Assembly (NCBI GenBank): GCA_951406725.2
Contig: OX597815.1
Location: 125,178,001-125,242,000 of the forward strand
Direction: 5' to 3'
DNA from: Octopus vulgaris
Taxonomy: Eukaryota
DNA: 64,000 bases
The position numbers and the translations under genes were made by a program. How positions within the stretch are numbered: position 1 is the first letter of the stretch; every line of letters starts with the position of its first letter. A model generated the notes under the pieces. It was not told where the DNA came from. It saw only the letters and a list, made by a program, of their open reading frames with translations, and made no database searches. Positions 5,076-35,313 of the stretch are shown one piece after another.

Positions 5076-5600
5076 GTATGTATGTTTAAACTATATTTGA
5101 AACAGAATCAAATGTAATTGAGCAGCAAAGATCAAATATAGGTTCCTACATATAAAACTGCATATGTAATTAAACACACACACACAATCTTCCTTTTATG
5201 CCCACTTTCCATACTGGAATGAGTTGGATGAGTCATCACAGTCTAACATCTTTATTTGGTGTTATGGCCTTCCTAGATGAGATGCAGGTCCACATCTCAT
5301 TCATGTTCTACTTTGACATGCTTTTTAGATTCCCTTATTAAGACTGCTCAATTGACAGAATGTACTGGAGAAATTTTATCACTGTACCAGAACCAGTGAA
5401 GTAGCTTTGAATGCCACAAGACCAAAGAGTCCTTACTACCCTACATTGTTTCTATTCATTAAGGTATGGTGACTGAAGGGCAAATTGAACAGCTTATATA
5501 TATATATAATATTAATTCGAGACAAAACCACTATTTTGCAAAACAAACAAGGAAAGACTTAATCAATACATAAAAATTTTTAATAAAAAGAAATAAACCG

Positions 5601-5643
5601 CCACTACAATCGTTTCATGTCTTCAATGACATTCGTCAGGTGG
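5601..5643 (-). ncRNA. Minimal type I hammerhead ribozyme
   Basis: Minus strand: CCAC-CUGACGA-AUGUC-auugaa-GACAU-GAAAC-gauu-GUA-GUGG. Canonical core, paired stems I and II, 2-bp stem III, GUA cleavage triplet. Confidence 0.85.
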
Positions 5644-5711
5644 ATTTTCGATCTCCTAATCTGTTTTAATTTATGACTTCATAAATTAAAACAGATTAGG
5701 AGATCGAAAAT

Positions 5712-5754
5712 CCACCTGACGAATGTCATTGAAGACATGAAATGATTGTAGTGG
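5712..5754 (+). ncRNA. Minimal type I hammerhead ribozyme (mirror copy, GAAAU variant)
   Basis: ccac-ctgacga-atgtc-attgaa-gacat-gaaat-gatt-gta-gtgg; the C-G pair of stem III becomes U-G. Confidence 0.75.
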
Positions 5755-5927
5755 CAGTTTATTTCTTTATATTAAAAATTTTTATGTATTGATTAAGTCT
5801 TTCCTTGTTTGTTTTGCAAAATAGTGGTTTTGTCTCGAATTAATATTATATAATATTTTACTATAAAATTGGATTTAATCCTAAATCTGATTTTTTCCCT
5901 GTAAATTTGGATTTATTCCCTAATATT

Positions 5928-5968
<41 letters not shown>

Positions 5969-5971
<3 letters not shown>

Positions 5972-6190: not shown

Positions 6191-6450
6191 GAATCTTCGG
6201 TGAGCACCCATTGTTGCTCACCGTCTTCCTCTTGCGGCCCTTCCCTGAGGAGTCCTCTGTCTCCTCAGCCGCCTTCGTTCCCTCTTTTACAGAGGTCTCA
6301 ATTGACTGCTCCAGGACTCCACCTTGCTCCAGAGGACAGTTCTTCTGGCTCTAGGCACCAATGACACCTGTGGGGGCGACCCTCAAGAATCACTGGAAAC
6401 CTGCACCTGGCCATTTTCAAAAAATCTGGCATAACCAGATTCATGGGTGA

Positions 6451-6681
6451 TATATAGGCACAGGAGGGTCTGTGTGGTAAGTAGCTTGCTTACCAACCTG
6501 GGTGGCAGTGGAGCCAGGCTCCTCAATGTGAAAATTCTTCCTGTGGCTGATTGGGTTGGGTCAAAAGCTGTTTTGACCCAACCCAATCAGCCACAGGAAG
6601 AATTTTCACATTGAGGAGCCTGGCTCCACTGCCACCCAGGTTGGTAAGCAAGCTACTTACCACACAGCCCTTCCTGCACCT

Positions 6682-6686
<5 letters not shown>
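6451..6686. repeat. Perfect inverted repeat (97-bp arms 6470-6566 / 6571-6667, 4-nt loop) with SINE heads as its outer ends
   Basis: Base-by-base reverse complement identity. The outer part is the ctgtgtggtaagtagcttgcttaccaacc SINE head. Confidence 0.95.
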
Positions 6687-6711
<25 letters not shown>

Positions 6712-6715
<4 letters not shown>

Positions 6716-7010
6716 TGGCTGTCTACTCCTTATGCAGAGTTTGACCACCTCCTGTACCTACATCTTAGAACCAGCATGGCATCTAATGTGACTTTTTAAA
6801 CCAGAGAAGGTTTTGAAAAGACACCCACATTGTATATCATTGCATATCTGATTTGGACCAACAAGAGCTGCAGTTAAGTTCGGATGTTTGTGTATCTTAA
6901 AATGTCTTTTGAGGCCTCCATTAGATTTGCAGACCTCCTGGCATACATTGCATAGAAAGGTTTGTACAGACATCATTGGTACTCCTACTACAATCAACCC
7001 TGCTGCAGCT
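6712..7010 (-). mobile_element. 3' end of an RTE-type LINE (C-terminal C2H2-like fingers, short 3' UTR, TA tail)
   Basis: ORF 6758-7288 ends CNVCQEVCKSNGGLKRHFKIH...CGCLFKTFSGLKSHIRCH. The stop is followed by about 45 nt and then (TA)n. This C-x2-C..GL.SH.R.H motif is typical of RTE ORF C-termini. Confidence 0.65.
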
Positions 7011-8641
7011 GATGATATTTTTACTGTAACAACAAATGTAGAGATGAGACTGAACATAAACCCTTCCATCAAAGCCAATGGAAATATTTCTTTGTTTTCG
7101 CCTGTCGATGAGTATTTTACCCAAAACAAAGTAATTATTAAATTATCCTTAAGGTAACACAATATCTTGTTACTTTGATACTTATACATTCTTTTGAATT
7201 GTAAAAAGATTTCCAAACCGACTCTATTTTTATACATATATGACATGGGTATGTCTGTATGCTTAAGATGTTTGCTTCCCAACCACATTGAAAAGTAGAT
7301 AATATAACAATTTACTGGAAGTCTGGAGAAATACTATAATTTAAGGTTGGAAAACACCCTGAAGAGGGGTAGGGTCCACTAAGTTGATAAATGTCTCTTG
7401 ACATTTCTTAGATGCCATGGCATTAACAGCTTGGATTAAAAGAACAAAACATAAAATATTGAAACAATGCTGTATATGGATATGAACATAAAATCAATAT
7501 ATATGAAACACAGACATAGCTAGATATTACATACATACACACAAGTAGTCAATATTTCAAGATAATTGAGATAAGCTTGATAATATATTAAAATAAAGTT
7601 GATGATGACTGCTATCATACTATTAGATTTACACAGATGTGGTCATATTTTCATATCTTCTAATTCATATCTTATACATACATAAACATATATGTGTGTG
7701 TGTGGATACACACACACATACAAACATGTATATATGTGTATGTGTATATATGCAAGTATCCATGTATATATACACACACACACACATATAAGTATACGTA
7801 TTTACCTGTACAAATGCTTATGAATATATACAGGATTTTGTAAGTGATTTCAATTCTTTAAAAAAAAACATATTTTTTAGTCTTTTAAAGAAGGAAAATA
7901 CAAAAAAAAACCCTCTGAAATAATGTTCTATTTCCTGATATTAGCTCACAATATTACTGAATTAGAATAAGCATTATAATACTTCTGGTGGGTATTGGGT
8001 TGTTTGGGGGATTTTTTTTTCATAACTATGGAAACTAACTGAACCCAGCTTCAATATTCACAAATACCTCACTCTCACTCTCTTTCTTTCTCTCAGCAGC
8101 GAATTCACAGAGCTGTTAGAATACTGGATAAAACGCTTCCAGATATTTGCTCTGGCTTTCTGCATCTCAAGTCCAAATTCCACTGGGGCTATCTTCAGCC
8201 TTCACACAGGGTCAATAAAGAGAAGGATACCAGACCAGGGTGGTGAAATGATAGAATTGTGAGAGAATTAGACATTTAGTCAAACAAATCACCACCAATA
8301 CTTATTCCAAAGGGTGTCTTTTACTAAACCACTATATTACATGTAATGAAGCAGTGGCAGGGTGGAGACGCAGAAACACACACATACAAAATAATCAGTG
8401 GTTCTTAACCATTTTTATTCTTTTGTAGTGTCCCTTTTAAAATACTGTTATGCCTAGGATCTAGCTAAGTGATGACTGAGGTGTCACAACTAAACTGACT
8501 TAAACAGGGATGATAATTTATAAATATTACTCAAAAAATGGATTGTATAATCTTTTAACAGTGAAATGATAAAAAATTAAGAAAGACATAGGTTGTAAAT
8601 TTACTTAACAAACTGCAAGTTAAGTAGATATGAATGTGTAT

Positions 8642-10849: not shown

Positions 10850-11220
10850 CTAGCAGTATCGCCCGGCGTTGCTCAGGTTTGTAAGGGAAATAACTATAAA
10901 ACATTTTTAGAGAGTTATAGCCAAAAAATAGCAAAAAAAATGATGGTAATTTTTTTTTTAGTTAAAAAGGTGGAGTTGCATCCCCTAGACAGTTTGCGGT
11001 TTGTGTTTCTAATTCTCGACCCCATGTCGAATTTATCGATTTTTTCAGAACTGGGGGAACTTTTCAAAATTTTCGCTGCGTTAGTTTTGAATTATGACAT
11101 TGGGCTATGTGTGTGTTAAGTTTCATCAGAATCGGTTGAAAGCCGTGGTCAGGGTGAGGGTACAAGCAAACAGACACACAGAAACACGCACAGACAAACT
11201 GCCGTTTATATATATAGAGA
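10850..11220 (-). mobile_element. Non-autonomous Helitron, copy 1
   Basis: Minus strand A|TCTCTATATATATAAACGGC...cctgagcaacgccggg (subterminal hairpin)...CTAG|T; no TSD. Confidence 0.75.
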
Positions 11221-11326
11221 TATACATACATACATATATATATATACATACATACATACATACACATATGCATACATACATATATATATATATACATACA
11301 TACATACACATATGCATACATACATA

Positions 11327-11708
11327 TCTCTCTCTATATAAACGGCAGTTTGTCTGTGCGTGTTTCTGTGTGTCTGTTTTCTCGTACCCTCACCCTGACC
11401 ACGGCTTTCAACCGATTCTGATGAAACTTGACACACACATAGCCCAATGTCATAATTCAAAACTAACGCAGCGAAAATTTTGAAAAGTTCCCCCAGTTCT
11501 GAAAAATCGATAAATTCGACATGGGGTCGAGAATTAGAAACCCAAACCACAGACCGTCTAGGGGACGCAACTCTACCTTTTTTAACTCTCAAAAAAATTT
11601 ACCATCATTTTTTTTCCATTTTTTTGCTATTTTTTGGCTATAACTCTCTAAAAATGCTTTATAGTTATTTCCCTTACAAACCTGAGCAACGCCGGGCGAT
11701 ACTGCTAG
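11327..11708 (+). mobile_element. Non-autonomous Helitron, copy 2
   Basis: A|TCTCTCTCTATATAAACGGC...cctgagcaacgccgggcgatactgCTAG|T. Same family as copy 1, with scattered substitutions and indels. Confidence 0.75.
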
Positions 11709-11860
11709 TATATATATACATACATACATACATATATATACATACATACATATATATATATATATACATACATACATACATATATATACATACATACATA
11801 TATATATATATACATACGTACATACATATATATGCATATATATATATATATATATATATA

Positions 11861-12234
11861 ATAATTATATGAAGGAATATTATTCCTAACTTACAGGGAA
11901 AATTTCAATTTAGAAATACTAAATCAAATTTCACAAAATATAATATATATATTTATATACATAAAAATTAGAAAAAAATCACCTTTTATCAATTAAAAAT
12001 GAACAATTAAATTACACCATCCAGAAAATGACATATAATAGAAATATTAAATATAAAATAACAATAATATACTGATGATTATGTAAATTGCAAATTATAT
12101 ACATTTTAATATTATTTTGCAATTTACTTAATCATCGGTATATTATTGTTAGTTTATTTTTAATATTTCTATTATATGTAATTTTCTACATATTGTTCAT
12201 TGTGAATTGATAAAAGGTATTTTTTCCTAATTCA
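11861..12234 (-). mobile_element. AT-rich fold-back element (probable PLE-type tail plus inverted pLTR fragment), empty-site copy
   Basis: Imperfect inverted arms about 11965-12100 / 12105-12232. The ~100-bp unique end shares ttacagggaaaa with the tail of the 5503-5931 element. Confidence 0.55.
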
Positions 12235-14872: not shown

Positions 14873-17800
14873 TAATAATTATTTGAAGGAATATTATTCC
14901 TAACTTACAGGGAAAATTTCAATTTAGAAATACTAAATCAAATTTCACAAAATATAATATATATATTTATATACATAAAAGTTAGAAAAAAATCACCTTT
15001 TATCAATTAAAAATGAACAATTAAATTACACCATCCAGAAAATGACATATAATAGAAATATTAAATATAAAATAACAATAATATACCGATGATTATGTAA
15101 ATTGCAAAATATATACATTTTAATATTATTTTGCCATACTCAAACTCGGTGTGTGACACACTAATTGTACATATTAGGCAACTTGATGTAGTTGTGTGTG
15201 CTACATATCGCCCTCCAGATGCCCCAAGCCATGTGGGCAAGTTTGAAGACTGCCTTATAAAAATAGAAGAAATTCTAACCACATTAGAACAACACATAGG
15301 TGTGCTTCTTATGGGAGACTTCAATCTGCCCAATGTCAGATGGCCCGAGGGCCTTTCTCTCCCAGGAATGACAAGATGTGAACGAGGACAGGCGAGGTCC
15401 CTCCTGAACCTCATCAACACCCTGTACATGGAGCAGGTAATACTCCAACCAACCAGGGCAGGTAACACACTGGATTTCTGCTTCACAAATGACATGGATC
15501 TCATCCATAATGTGAAAGTGACACCGACACTACTCTCGGATCACAACATGATAGAGCTGACCATGTACGGGCCAAAAGAGAGCACGGACATGCAGCCTAC
15601 AAGAAACCCTCAAAATCTTTCCAGCTTGAACTACCATAAGGCAAACTGGAAACAAATTGAGAAAGAGATCCTCAAACAAAACTGGCCTAAATGTCTCTCC
15701 TCGCCAGACATCGACGTGAAACTTCAACAATTCATGTCTGTAATGCAAGCCATATGCTACAAATGTGTCCCAGAGAGAAAGGCCACTGTACACAAGAACA
15801 AAATCCCTAGAGAGAGGAAAATTTTAATGAGACGGCGTACGAAATTTTCAAATCGCCTAAACAAACAGATTGAAAGCAGTGAAAAGTCCCGCCTAAAAAT
15901 AAAACTGTTGGAAATCGAAAAATGTCTGCAACTCTCCCATGAAAAAGAAAGAGCAGACGAAGAAGCCTGGGCTATAGAAAACATAAAATCTAACCCCAGA
16001 GCTTTCTACAGGTATGCCAAAGAAACAGCTACAGTGCACTGTAGAATAGGGCCACTCCTCGAAAAGGATGGCACACTTACAGGAAAACCAATGAGGGTAA
16101 GTGAAATACTGAATGAGCAATTCAAGAGTGTTTTCACTCCACCCCTTGGGCATCTCCAAATCACCAATCCAACTGACTTTTTTACCACTGCAGATATAAA
16201 ATCAGAGGCGGCGACGATAGATTACATCGATATAAAGGAAGACGATGTAACCAAGGCTATAGATGAAATGAAAACAGACTCAGCTACTGGCCCCGATGGA
16301 TTCCCGGCAATCCTCCTAAAAGCATGTAAGAGAGTCCTAGCAAGACCACTGCAGTTCCTCTTTCAGAGCTTCCTTGCAGCTGGCAAACTTCCAGGAAAAC
16401 TGAAGGAAGGTAAAATATGCCCCATTCATAAAGGAGGTAGCAGAGTGGAAGCCAAGAACTATAGACCTATCTCTCTGACCTCACACATCAGCAAGGTCAT
16501 GGAACGAATAGTCAGAAGGAAGCTGATCACCTTCCTTGAAGAGAATGACTTGCTGCCCGACACCCAACATGGTTTCCGACCAGGGAGAAGCTGTTTAACT
16601 CAGCTCCTACAACACTATGACTGGGTGCTGAAACGGCTGCTCAACCACTCAAATGTGGAAGTGATATATCTCGACTTTGCAAAGGCCTTTGATAAAGTCG
16701 ATCATGGAATGATATGTCACAAACTGCGTGATCTCAACATAGTTGGAAAACTGGGAGAATGGCTTCATGACTTTCTGAAGGATAGAAGTCAGGTGGTAGT
16801 AGCCAATGGGGCCACCTCCATTAACACACAAATAGTGAGCGGTGTTCCGCAGGGCACTGTTCTGGGACCACTACTGTTCATAATGGCCCTCTCAGACATG
16901 CCCTCAGCCACGCAGAGAGCAACGATCACAAGTTATGCAGATGATACAAAAGTTTCACAGGCAATACAGAACCCTGAGGACACTAAACACCTGCAATGTG
17001 AGCTGGACGAAATATACAAGTGGGCTGAAAAGAATAGCATGCAGTTCAATGCTGGAAAGTTTCAAGCTTTATACTATCAGCATGCAAAACTGAATGCAAT
17101 ACCCAATGAATACACTGGACCCGGATTGCAATCCCAGAGGCACAATCAGTGCGTGACCTGGGTATTCACATGAGTGATGACGCGACCTTTCATGTACATG
17201 TTGCTAAACTGACAATGAAATGTAGACGGCTGGCTGGATGGATTCTTAGAACCTTTAGAACAAGAGAACAAGAAACCATGATGGTCCTCTGGAAGACACT
17301 TGTCCTAAGCCACTTTGACTATTGCTCTCAGCTATGGTCACCATCCAGTGTCAAGTTGATCACAGAACTTGAGGCGATCCAACGAAGCTACACAAAGAAG
17401 ATAGCCTCTATGCAGAATGTAAGCTACTGGGAAAGACTCAAGAGATTAAAATTATATTCCCTGGAGCGTAGGCGGGAAAGATATGCCATAATATACATCT
17501 GGAAGATCCTGGAGGGAAGTGTCCTGAACTTTGGCATCGAGAGTTACGCAAATGCCAGAACTGGGCGCCATTGCGTGGTGCCTAGGACTCCAAACCTGCC
17601 ATCAAGATGTAGGACAAGATTCTGTGATAGCCTGGGCTTCCGAGGCCCACAGCTCTTCAATATCCTCCCGAAGAACCTGAGAGACCTGCATGGGGTGGAT
17701 ACAGATGTCTTTAAAATGAAGCTGGATCTCTTCCTGTCAGGTGTCCCAGATGAACCAACTTCACGGCAGGAGGGGCAGATGAGGGCAGCTGCATCGAACT

Positions 17801-18032
17801 CTCTCATGCACCAAATAGCAGTTACTAGAAAGCCTCCATGAAGTGAAACCAAGTAGCAACACCAAATGGCGGTGCCCCAGCATGGCCACAGCTCATAAGC
17901 TGAAACTAGAATCAATCAATCAATCAATCAATCGGTATATTATTGTTGGTTTATTTTTAATATTTCTATTATATGTAATTTTCTACATATTGTTCATTGT
18001 GAATTGATAAAAGGTATTTTTTCCTAATTCAT
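14873..18032 (-). mobile_element. Second copy of the 11861 fold-back element, interrupted by a LINE
   Basis: 14873-15134 and 17931-18032 match 11861-12120 and 12134-12234 with about 5 substitutions. Confidence 0.85.
15135..17933 (+). mobile_element. 5'-truncated CR1-clade LINE: ORF2 with APE endonuclease and reverse transcriptase, one frameshift
   Basis: Endonuclease motifs YRPP, MGDFNLP, TLD and SDHN. RT motifs YRPISLTS, QHGFRPGRSC, YLDFAKAFDKV, GVPQGTVLGP and YADD. Frameshift near 17123, stop at 17841, (AATC)n tail. Confidence 0.95.
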
Positions 18033-20497: not shown

Positions 20498-21282
20498 AAT
20501 TTTTTTTATATCTAGTTTCAGCTCACGAGATGTGGCCATGCTGTGGACCAACATTTGGTGTGTTGCAACATAATTTTACTTCACGAATGCTTCTTAGGAA
20601 TGGACATTTGGTGCATGAGAGAGTTTGATGCCGCTGCACTCATCTGCACCTCCTGCCGCAAAGTTGGTTCATCTGGGACACTTGACAGTAGGAGGTCCCG
20701 CTTTATTTTGAAGATACCTACATCCACCCCATGCAGGTCTCTCAGGTCCTTTGGGAGAATATTGAAGAGCTGTGGACCTGTGAAGCCCAGGCTATTGCAG
20801 TATCTTGTCCTACATCTTGATGGCAAATTTGGAGACCTTGGCACTAAGCAGTGGCGCCCAGTTCTAGTATTTGTGTAACTCTCGATGCCAAAGTTTGGGA
20901 CAAGTTCTTCTAGAATCTTTCAGATGTATATAGCATAGCTTTCTTGCCTATGCTCAAACAAAGAGAGTCTTAATCTCTTGAGTCTTTCCCAGTGGCTTAT
21001 ATGCTGCATAGAGGCTATCTTCTTCCTGTAACTTCATTGGATTGCCTAAAGTTCTGATATTAATTTGACTCTGGTTGGTGACCATAGCTAAGGGCAATAG
21101 TTAAAGTGGTTACGGACAAGTGTCCTCCAGAGGACCATCAGAGTTTCCTGATCTCTTGTTCTAAAAGTTATAAGAATCCATCTGGTCAGCCGCCTGCATT
21201 TCATTGCCAATTTAGCAACACGCACATGGAAGGATGCGTTGTTAATCATGTACGTGCCCAGGTCTCACGCTGAGTGTGCCTC
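20498..21282 (-). mobile_element. Degenerate 3' fragment of a LINE related to the 15135 copy
   Basis: ORF 20581-20844 (PNLPSRCRTRYCNSLGFTGPQLFNILPKDLRDLHGVD) matches the C-terminus of ORF 17149-17841, and the 3' UTR is similar. Confidence 0.9.
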
Positions 21283-21285
21283 TTT

Positions 21286-21286
<1 letters not shown>

Positions 21287-21333
<47 letters not shown>

Positions 21334-21716
21334 CGTATATGTATATACTTATGTATATATATATATGTGTATATATATATATACATATACGTATATATAT
21401 ACATATATATATATATATATACATATATATACATATACATATACATATATATACATATACATACATATACATACATATATATACATATATATACATATAC
21501 ATACATATATATATATACATACATATATATATATACATACATATATATATACATACATATATATATATACATACATATATATATATACATACATATATAT
21601 ATATACATACATATATATATATACATATATATATATACATATATATATATACATATATATATATACATATATATATATACATATATATATATACATATAT
21701 ATATATACATATATAT
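21287..21716. repeat. TA/TACA microsatellite
   Basis: Low complexity. Confidence 0.95.
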
Positions 21717-23472
21717 ACTTAGAATAACTTAGAAAGGTTTTTGGCCAGTATTGGCCCAGGCCATGTCTAACTTAATAGCACCTCCTGGCGAAGTCTTTCA
21801 GTTCAGGATTTGGGCACCAAGGCCCATTCGAGCAGAGAGTTATTGTTTGCGGAGACATATCCGGGTGTGGATGGTTTGTCCGGTACTGTTTGAAGGAATT
21901 TGTCCAAAGACTTCTTGAATTTTGTGTGGTCAGTTTCTTTTTTGACGTGTCCTGGTGTAATGTTGAAGAGAGCGGGTCCAATTGAGGTGAAATAGTTGTG
22001 CCGTATTGTCGTTATGTGATGCGATTTAGATTTTTGTTGTGGACGGATGGCACGTGGTCCAAGCCTTGGATGCATTTTGAAGGTGATGCCAACATCATTC
22101 GGACAGTGCTGATGGAATATTTTCCACATCATACAGATAATGTAGCGTTCACGGCGTCGTTGGAGTGAATACAATTTCAGCTTCTCTAGTCTACCCCAGT
22201 AGTCAAGGTCTGACATGCCATCTATCTTTTTTGTGATTGACCTTTGGGGAGCTTCAATTCTCATAATATTTTGTTTTGTGTAGGGAGACCACAGTGGACA
22301 GCAGTATTCAAGGTGGGGTCGGGCAAAAGTGGAGAAGAGAAGGATAATAGCGTGGGAATCTCTCGACTGGAAGGTTCTGAGAATCCAGGAACACATTCTG
22401 CGGGCCATGTCAACTTTGCTGCTTATATGTGTAGCCCAGCTTATGTTGTTGTCCACTGTTACTCCCAGGTCTCTGATGTTGTTGGATGCCATGAGAATTT
22501 CTCCAGAAGGAAGAGAGTATGGGAGTTTCAGAGCGTCCTCCCTTCCAAAGTGGATCAGTTCGATTTGTCTTCATTTAGCAACATGTTATTCTTTTCCGCC
22601 CATTGGACAACAGCTAGTAGGTCTGACTGAAGGTTTATTCGGTCATCCACGCCATTGATGACCTTCTGGAGCTTGGAATCATCAGCGAAGGTTCTGATGT
22701 TGCTGTGTTTGATGGTGTCAGTAATATCATTTATGTAGATGATGAAGAGAAGTGGGCCCAACACAGTGCCTTGTGGGACACCACTGCTGACTTTGGCTGG
22801 GCTGGATTTGACTCCTTCGACTACAACATGTTGGGTTCTGTTAGAGAGGAAGCACTTGATCCATTGCAGCAGCTTTCCAGTGACACCAATATTGGACAGC
22901 TTTCTCAGAAGGATCTTATGATCAACCCTGTCAAAGGCCTTGCTGAAATCAAGGTAGATGACATCAGTGTTGGAACCCTCTCCCAAGGCTCTCAAAATGT
23001 CATCAAAATGATGCAGTAGCTGCGTCAGGCAATCTCTCCCATTACGGAATCCATGCTGGTTGGGGTTCAGCATATTATGACTCTCAAGGAAGTGAGTCAT
23101 ACGCGATCTCAGCACCCTCTCAAATACCTTGATGATATGAGAGGTGAGTGAGATTGGACGGTAATTCACGGCAAGCGATTTGTTTCCTTTTTGAAAACTG
23201 GGACAACAGAATGGGATAGAAGGTCTTCTGGTATATATCCAGCATCCAATGAGTTCCGCCACAGATTGGCTAGAGTGGGTGCAAGTTGGTTTTGACACAT
23301 CTTCAAGACACAAGCAGGGAACCTATCGGGACCTACTGCTGAATTATGCTTCATTTCCTTTATTGCTGCTAAGACATCAGGAGCGCCAAATGTTATGTCC
23401 GATAAAGTGTATTGGGGAGTAACATCACTGATACAGCCCAGATCAGTCATATCAGGACCAGATCAGTCATAT
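21717..23472 (-). mobile_element. 5'-truncated CR1-clade LINE (second family), RT region with frameshifts
   Basis: ORFs 23166-23450, 22555-23313 and 21803-22492 contain YRPISLTS, QHGFRNGR, YLDFSKAFDRV, GVPQGTVLGP, FADD and RPHLEYCCPLWSP. Short repeated tail (ttctaagt). Confidence 0.95.
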
Positions 23473-27615: not shown

Positions 27616-27705
27616 TGTGTGTTGGAGGTCGTTATGAGTTCTTGGTAGGGTAGTAGGACTTCTACTACTACCCTACCAAGAACTCACAACGACCTCCAAC
27701 ACACA
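27616..27705. repeat. Hairpin with 41-bp arms and 8-nt loop inside the PLE
   Basis: tgtgtgttggaggtcgttatgagttcttggtagggtagtag pairs with ctactaccctaccaagaactcacaacgacctccaacacaca; one mismatch. Confidence 0.9.
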
Positions 27706-35232: not shown

Positions 35233-35313
35233 CTCATGGTAGACTGAAGGTTGTGCCAAAGAAGGAACTCTGTAGGTTTTAATTTTAGGGCTGCCATCAG
35301 GATATACAATCTC
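35233..35313 (-). CDS. Candidate exon 3 (81 nt): core of the spliced uORF, RLYILMAALKLKPTEFLLWHNLQSTM
   Basis: Strong acceptor tttctctctttgcag| and donor GAG|gtaaaa. GC-richer than its flanks and open in the phase set by exon 52200-52264. Confidence 0.75.

Follow-up and report, generated by a model that had tools for sequence, protein, structure and literature searches.

Opposite-strand hammerhead motifs in a palindromic, probably Penelope-derived insertion of Octopus vulgaris

The Penelope-like elements (PLEs) leave insertions of a recognizable kind, typically an inverted, 5'-truncated copy with a one-sided tail of 30-40 bp (PMC8557442). Dual minimal hammerheads, on opposite strands and 100-700 bp apart, are known, for instance, from Schistosoma mansoni and from the bracovirus PLE of Cotesia congregata (Cervera and de la Pena 2014, PMC4209133). 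In the Hydra clade of PLEs, an inverted 5' copy is recorded for Penelope-13_HM, whose hammerhead is listed for either strand (PMC8557442), and the clade includes an octopus family with a (TA)n preference, Hydra-1_Obim (Craig et al. 2021, PMC8557442). Arkhipova et al. took the palindromic junctions of head-to-head inversions to reflect self-priming (PMC3846280), and the tail has been tied to two initiation sites of reverse transcription (Frangieh et al., PMC11167929). The opposite-strand dual hammerhead, with its inverted-pLTR layout, is already described.

How does the present locus compare? It lies in a stretch of 64,000 nucleotides of Octopus vulgaris DNA, the whole of which was analysed and is called the window here. 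We read 5503-5931, with the (TA)n that flanks it, as one heavily 5'-truncated EN+ Penelope-like insertion, in which the two hammerheads are a single pLTR ribozyme, mirror-copied and predicted to be inactive at this site; the probability of this reading is roughly 0.8. The features on which the discussion turns are the following.

5496-5508, no strand: left (TA)n target tract, read from the letters, overlapping the outer end of the short arm
5503-5676, minus strand: short (left) arm, a probable inverted, tail-less copy of the element's 3' end, matching the right arm at 171 of 174 positions
5601-5643, minus strand: type I minimal hammerhead with GAAAC intact, core 5639-5633, predicted cut 5605/5604
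5677-5678, no strand: palindrome centre of 2 nt, the head-to-head junction and putative point of 5' truncation and fold-back
5679-5852, plus strand: long (right) arm, the element-sense copy, with CpG-type transitions at 5743 and 5756
5712-5754, plus strand: second hammerhead, with U after GAAA, predicted cut 5750/5751; its dimer helix III is predicted to be nearly lost
5853-5931, plus strand: one-sided 79-nt tail with a TA-like terminus, common to two other elements of the window
5932-5970, no strand: right (TA)n target tract, read from the letters
11860-12232 and 14875-18032, minus strand: sister palindrome-plus-tail elements with TA microsatellite and a related tail
35233-35313, minus strand: hyccin (FAM126) coding exon, residues 112-138 of 511 (Pfam PF09790, E 7e-6)

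A centre-out scan of the whole window places the palindrome at 5503-5852, with 174-bp arms and mismatches at 5612/5743, 5599/5756 and 5586/5769 (98.3% arm identity), and so the near-perfect palindrome of about 350 bp described in the sequence-only reading is confirmed. That reading had drawn the fold-back over all of 5503-5931; this holds as far as 5852, but the tail has no mirror counterpart and lies outside the palindrome. Palindrome and tail together make an element of 430 bases, (TA)n adjoins both its ends, and both ends stop at alike TA-rich patches. When oriented by the sense of the hammerhead, the structure is an inverted 5'-truncated copy joined head-to-head at the 5' end, the anatomy of an EN+ PLE, and the element sense of the short arm is the minus strand. 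The tail is one-sided but 79 nt long; the optional tails described for PLEs, at one end only, are of 30-40 bp. Six-frame translation of the long arm and tail gives no ORF; an ATG at the stem II opening stops after 5 codons, and Anolis PAc likewise has an ATG there. The ORF of Hydra-1_Obim ends with its stop codon about 125 nt ahead of the hammerhead core (PMC8557442), so that a stub with only 37 nt before the core would not be expected to hold an ORF, and none is seen.

Might the palindrome be an assembly or amplification artefact, a fold-back made in the tube or by the assembler? Other fold-backs occur in the window (6461-6676 and 27616-27705) and no run contig spans the centre, but short-read contigs are not expected across repeated palindromes. 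The arms, moreover, differ at three sites, of which two are CpG-type transitions in the right arm (5743 and 5756), and one run has a contig matching 4996-5514 over all 519 letters, which enters the left arm from unique flank. We find an artefact hardly credible. The right arm has 3 CpGs and the left arm 5. At 5586/5769 the right-arm letter makes up about 89% and 78% of contig depth in two large runs and 67% in a third; since it prevails, the left arm's difference at 5586 seems to be a private change of its own. In two of the three large runs, agreement between flank contig and window ends at 5508, where 7 letters of the contig stay unmatched, while in the third the contig runs on into the element; this could represent a longer TA tract, a TA-length polymorphism or an empty site, that is, presence/absence of the insertion.

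The hammerhead of each arm is built of a 4-bp helix I, CUGACGA, a 5-bp helix II with a 6-nt loop, and GAAA; helix III, of 2 bp, closes a 4-nt loop, and the site is GUA. In the plus copy, stem I pairs 5712-5715 with 5751-5754, the core is 5716-5722, stem II pairs 5723-5727 with 5734-5738, and GAAA at 5739-5742 is followed by U-GAUU-G-U-A, the change at 5743 having converted GAAAC to GAAAU. A descriptor applied to both strands of the window finds exactly two motifs, one per strand and 68 nt apart; with the two mirror-image matches counted as one event, any match arose in 1 of 200 shuffles that kept local dinucleotide content. The claims that each strand holds a complete minimal hammerhead, and that only one copy has GAAAC intact, therefore stand. 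The CUGANGA and GAAA cores, helix II, the UH site and a helix I that closes the ends are of PLE type in both copies, and the core, stem lengths and GUA site given earlier are correct, but stem II closes with A-U (or with U-A and an extra U) and not with the consensus G10.1-C11.1. A covariance or descriptor search had been suggested as a check, and the two approaches gave different answers. Rfam returned no hammerhead among 71 matches at E up to 10 and nothing at gathering scores, the matches being miRNA-type hairpins only, all of them below those scores; the descriptor returned the two motifs. Minimal hammerhead variants are usually found by descriptors, not by Rfam models.

To which group of PLEs, then, might the element belong? 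Like the type I hammerheads of metazoan PLEs, it has a CUGANGA...GAAA core, a 4-bp helix I, a tiny palindromic helix III and an opposite-strand pair (PMC4209133). It departs from the motifs of that study in its A-U stem II closing, for which the Marsupenaeus and D. willistoni rows are precedents, and in the 68-nt spacing within a near-perfect palindrome. Of 44 rows under the general consensus, 40 begin stem II with a G (PMC4209133 supplement). The Hydra hammerhead table has AC...GU after GAA in all 26 rows, U before GAA in 18, and a U-A opening pair with an extra U in 10, non-G-C variants being common (PMC8557442). One parse of stem II gives our element the same U-A opening and extra U, and, judged on its letters, the ribozyme layout is a better fit to the Hydra table than to the general consensus. 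The element shares with the Hydra clade a (TA)n target, a hammerhead about 80-210 nt from the 3' end, an AC...GU helix III and U before GAAAC; it differs in having no ORF here, 4 nt between AC and GU against 5-6 in the clade's rows that were compared, and a 79-nt tail. The protein signatures of the Hydra clade (RWK, DKT, a CxCX5C linker and no CCHH) would lie in the ORF that the stub lacks. Insertion into (TA)n together with a canonical hammerhead near the 3' end is thus as in Hydra, though a (TA)n or microsatellite bias is common to Naiad and Neptune also. Neptune's bias for microsatellites resembles the (TA)n insertion seen here, and the element's tail is about twice the usual length when set against Neptune and Penelope/Poseidon insertions. 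On ribozyme layout and (TA)n target, we give Hydra about an even chance of being the closest clade; Neptune is the next choice, a tentative one. Naiad we reject, as a complete hammerhead is present here and Naiad has no canonical hammerhead, and Hydra-1_Obim itself is rejected because its 3' end is a different sequence. Four motifs of the element gave no match in the PMC8557442 supplement, where line breaks could hide some.

Further comparisons place the locus among known structures. With Adineta vaga Pen2a and Pen3a (PMC3846280) and Anolis PAc (PMC11167929) it shares the head-to-head inverted pLTR, the palindromic junction and a tail at one end, but PAc initiates without target homology (PMC11167929) and our element ends at TA-like patches that resemble the target. 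Metazoan non-LTR retrozymes are likewise short, non-coding and PLE-related, with a type I hammerhead (PMC7229834; bioRxiv 10.64898/2026.07.22.740005). They are, however, head-to-tail tandems that release monomers and circles, whereas each strand here has one sense ribozyme; with inverted copies and only two motifs in the window, in place of head-to-tail monomers on the same strand, we reject a retrozyme. None of the 95 window ORFs scanned matches a GIY-YIG family, and of the two reverse transcriptase matches in the window one is a LINE with an AP endonuclease and the other a further fragment of the same type, with no linked PLE ORF. On structural criteria the element is likely PLE-derived, and it is known here without the ORF for a telomerase-like RT plus GIY-YIG that marks full-length members of EN+ PLE families.

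The element belongs to a repeated family. The stretch is present in 20 of 24 listed runs, from 8 studies under 4 organism labels. Relative depth, taken as summed contig depth over unique-flank depth and not to be read as copy number, was compared in three large runs with 5.5 kb covered. In the tail (5890) it reaches about 26,000, 8,900 and 24,000x, a figure that AT-rich or sister-family contigs may inflate; in the distal arms (5512 and 5837) it is 3,600-9,900x, and in the ribozyme (5624) about 1,200, 500 and 1,100x. The ratio of tail to ribozyme is 17-22 in all three runs, although the profile is uneven, with 5594 above 5586. A 17-22-fold fall toward the centre fits the expectation for a 3'-anchored, 5'-truncated repeated family, and strong 5' truncation in a repeated family is a mark of EN+ PLEs, the gradient being a rough measure since summed depth is not copy number. 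Loose contig ends at the element junction were swamped by neighbouring SINEs. Taken with the anatomy and the published precedents, the gradient supports the earlier identification of a Penelope-type pLTR whose minimal hammerheads are of the dimer kind, here with an inverted copy truncated at its 5' end.

Members of the family are absent from the viral contigs and prokaryote genomes searched (0 in each), collections that hold few animal genomes. Six metagenome loci with the motif pattern were rejected, as they are similar to the element in pattern only: four are bacterial DNA, two of these being the same gene, and the other two are homologous AT-rich contigs in which GAAAC is followed by neither a UH site nor helix I. 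Half of a hammerhead core, with helix II of 6 bp, is shared by L003 2508-2538 and L005 1206-1236, on AT-rich metagenome contigs that are homologous (83% over 2 kb), and no cleavage site or helix I is obvious there; L005 also has a 400-bp imperfect inverted repeat at 114-517.

The two sister elements of the window have the anatomy of 5503-5931, a palindrome, a one-sided tail and (TA)n, and in them the tail is joined to the palindrome identically. Their tails are 74% similar to it over 101 nt (E 2e-8), and the tail motif has 3 matches where 0.03 are expected. The descriptor finds no hammerhead in either sister. Between the sisters identity is 98.4% for the long arm and tail and 99.0% for the short arm, and both have an 11-nt arm indel, whereas the arms within one sister copy are 89.4% identical. 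This shows at least one event in which a sister palindrome with unequal arms was copied in full, whether through transposition or through a local duplication. Could palindrome plus tail then be a non-autonomous, PLE-derived unit that is copied whole by a PLE enzyme acting in trans? The greater likeness between sisters than between arms, with the shared indel, would favour such copying, as would the cis role of pLTRs in trans-mobilisation, found in rotifers (PMC3846280). Yet the sisters are only 3 kb apart and adjoin microsatellite arrays, so that local duplication explains them equally well. They lack the hammerhead, the arms of 5503-5852 are as alike as those of a fresh fold-back, and depth falls steeply toward the centre. 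We consider unit copying unlikely for the present element.

The same evidence bears on a second proposal, that the palindrome is a TA-targeting DNA-transposon MITE, nearly all of it terminal inverted repeat, which bears a hammerhead-like motif and has an unrelated neighbour for a tail. Long, near-perfect inverted repeats flanked by TA are what one would look for in a MITE. The one-sided tail, however, meets the palindrome in a like manner in two further elements; descriptor matches are rare by chance, and loop III is predicted to be dimer-competent; and depth is graded along the element, not flat. A MITE origin is quite improbable.

The window also tells us something of the host gene. The 27 residues encoded by the hyccin exon recur unchanged in an Argonauta protein and in an Octopus vulgaris hyccin, where they are residues 112-138; the exon has strong splice signals and also matches human hyccin structures. 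With the Octopus vulgaris and Argonauta proteins as tblastn queries, no other credible hyccin exon was found in the 64 kb, so that the flanking introns would exceed 28 kb and 35 kb. The element likely lies about 29 kb into the intron after this exon. Because the exon is on the minus strand, minus is the likely host sense strand, and the earlier placement of the intact GAAAC copy on that strand is borne out to the same degree.

Would either ribozyme be expected to cleave? For the minus copy, the predicted minimum-energy homodimer fold is a double hammerhead at -21.8 kcal/mol, against -16.8 kcal/mol for two monomers. For the plus copy the double hammerhead is predicted at -16.8 kcal/mol and a competing dimer at -20.2 kcal/mol. 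Predicted self-pairing of the loop III region is -5.8 kcal/mol in the minus copy and -0.8 in the plus copy, in which the U after GAAA nearly abolishes the predicted dimer helix III. The intact minus copy is thus predicted to form a double-hammerhead dimer through a short palindromic helix III, and the plus copy is not. As monomers, neither copy is predicted to favour the hammerhead fold (probabilities 0.002 and 0.0001). The statement that PLE-type hammerheads act as dimers, a requirement restated in a review (PMC6765202), agrees with this prediction for the intact copy and with published precedents.

In the whole palindrome the prediction is otherwise. Owing to the head-to-head junction, an antisense arm would be transcribed ahead of the ribozyme on either strand, and once that arm is made the ribozyme fold costs about 45 kcal/mol, forcing helix II with an open core being predicted to cost 44-47 kcal/mol. 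With the upstream arm, predicted stem II probability is about 1e-17 at 12 of 12 transcript lengths; without the arm it is 0.14-0.95. Each ribozyme is therefore predicted to be disabled by its own mirror copy. The sequence-only reading had proposed that a read-through RNA holds a ribozyme plus its own antisense, which may silence cleavage of the host pre-mRNA, and folding supports the sequestration. That the silencing matters is a weaker proposition. A lone metazoan minimal hammerhead showed no detectable cleavage in vitro and multimers low activity only (PMC4209133), and a transcript of this locus has one sense copy, so that silencing would probably have little cleavage to act on. In Anolis the PLE hammerhead needed its protein and was dispensable for insertion, and no read ended at its cut site (PMC11167929). 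Antisense silencing is likely a by-product of little consequence.

One might nonetheless propose that the antisense arm is a selected off-switch, sense-strand intronic ribozymes being tolerated only when inverted, so that hyccin pre-mRNA is protected or tuned. The intact copy does lie on the likely host sense strand, and the geometry is predicted to block its folding at the cost given above. But the way the element inserted is enough to produce this geometry, selection cannot be demonstrated from a single locus, the arms seem to be of recent origin (3 differences in 174), and the published inactivity of the lone minimal hammerhead and of the Anolis ribozyme without its protein leaves little for such a switch to act upon. 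Selection of this kind strikes us as very unlikely. As a 174-bp intronic duplex, the RNA would more probably be a substrate for ADAR or for siRNA production than an RNA that cleaves. Hyper-editing is exceptionally high in octopus, and repeats that are palindromic undergo editing by themselves (PMC5625713). One run, guessed to be RNA, has a 117-nt contig on 5726-5842, which is not counted as evidence.

What steps would produce such an insertion? In the route we favour, the GIY-YIG nuclease of a parent element would have cut a (TA)n tract, and target-primed reverse transcription would have begun at the distal 3' site of the RNA (5931) and stopped after about 253 nt (5679). The cDNA might then have folded back at a 2-nt loop, been copied back to an internal TA-like patch (5852), and there been joined to the other side of the target. 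A fold-back of this kind would start out with two identical arms, have its tail at one end and lack an ORF; three substitutions would have followed, two of CpG type in the right arm. Being symmetric, the 2-nt centre suits a single folded cDNA more readily than a pair of cDNAs truncated independently. In the parent the ribozyme would act as a dimer in tandem transcripts, whereas read-through RNA of the stub would present the antisense arm before the ribozyme and collapse into the 174-bp duplex.

As found, the locus matters little: it adds one octopod family, probably uncatalogued though possibly already in repeat libraries, to a described insertion pattern. The locus is also a natural construct for asking how PLE inversions form, by one symmetric fold-back or from two independent cDNAs, and whether the very high A-to-I editing reported for non-coding RNA in octopus (PMC5625713) draws on palindromes of PLE origin. 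It would gain importance if it were true that such palindromes move as units, or that intronic inversion is selected. A bolder proposal joins these ideas: an octopod family of short palindrome-plus-tail elements, derived from PLE pLTRs, would move as whole units into TA microsatellites, and a built-in off-switch, due to a head-to-head layout in which the antisense arm always comes ahead of the ribozyme, would let its members fill introns and supply near-perfect dsRNA to the octopus editing machinery. We think this unlikely. Among the listed papers on cephalopod hammerheads, judged from titles and the beginnings of abstracts, none deals with this family, and an O. vulgaris repeat paper never mentions a hammerhead or ribozyme; our search found no publication uniting hammerhead, intron, antisense and a palindromic inverted-repeat retrotransposon.

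Several other features of the window deserve mention. A near-intact LINE with AP endonuclease and reverse transcriptase lies at about 15135-17930 on the plus strand (ORFs 15101-17170 and 17110-17838), inside the second sister element, which it splits; it ends in short AATC repeats, and related minus-strand fragments occur at about 20500-23300. Because it carries an AP endonuclease, this LINE (15101-17841) is ruled out as the PLE partner. A second fold-back, at 6461-6676 (within 6450-6690), is only 500 bp from the element and has 106-bp arms, a 4-nt centre and TA on both sides. Run contigs indicate that (TA)n precedes 6450 in other copies, and we take its heads, which point outward, to be SINE-like. 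At 10850-11710 a TA/CATA microsatellite sits between two inverted arms that share 95% identity and measure about 370-390 bp; each arm ends outward in CTAG beside a short GC-rich stretch, ends that to us are reminiscent of Helitron 3' ends. A small palindrome at 27616-27705 has 41-bp arms and an 8-nt centre in non-microsatellite sequence. Finally, an open frame at 6761-7333 on the minus strand, in a highly repeated stretch, has weak C2H2 zinc-finger matches and is probably the N-terminal part of a retroelement.
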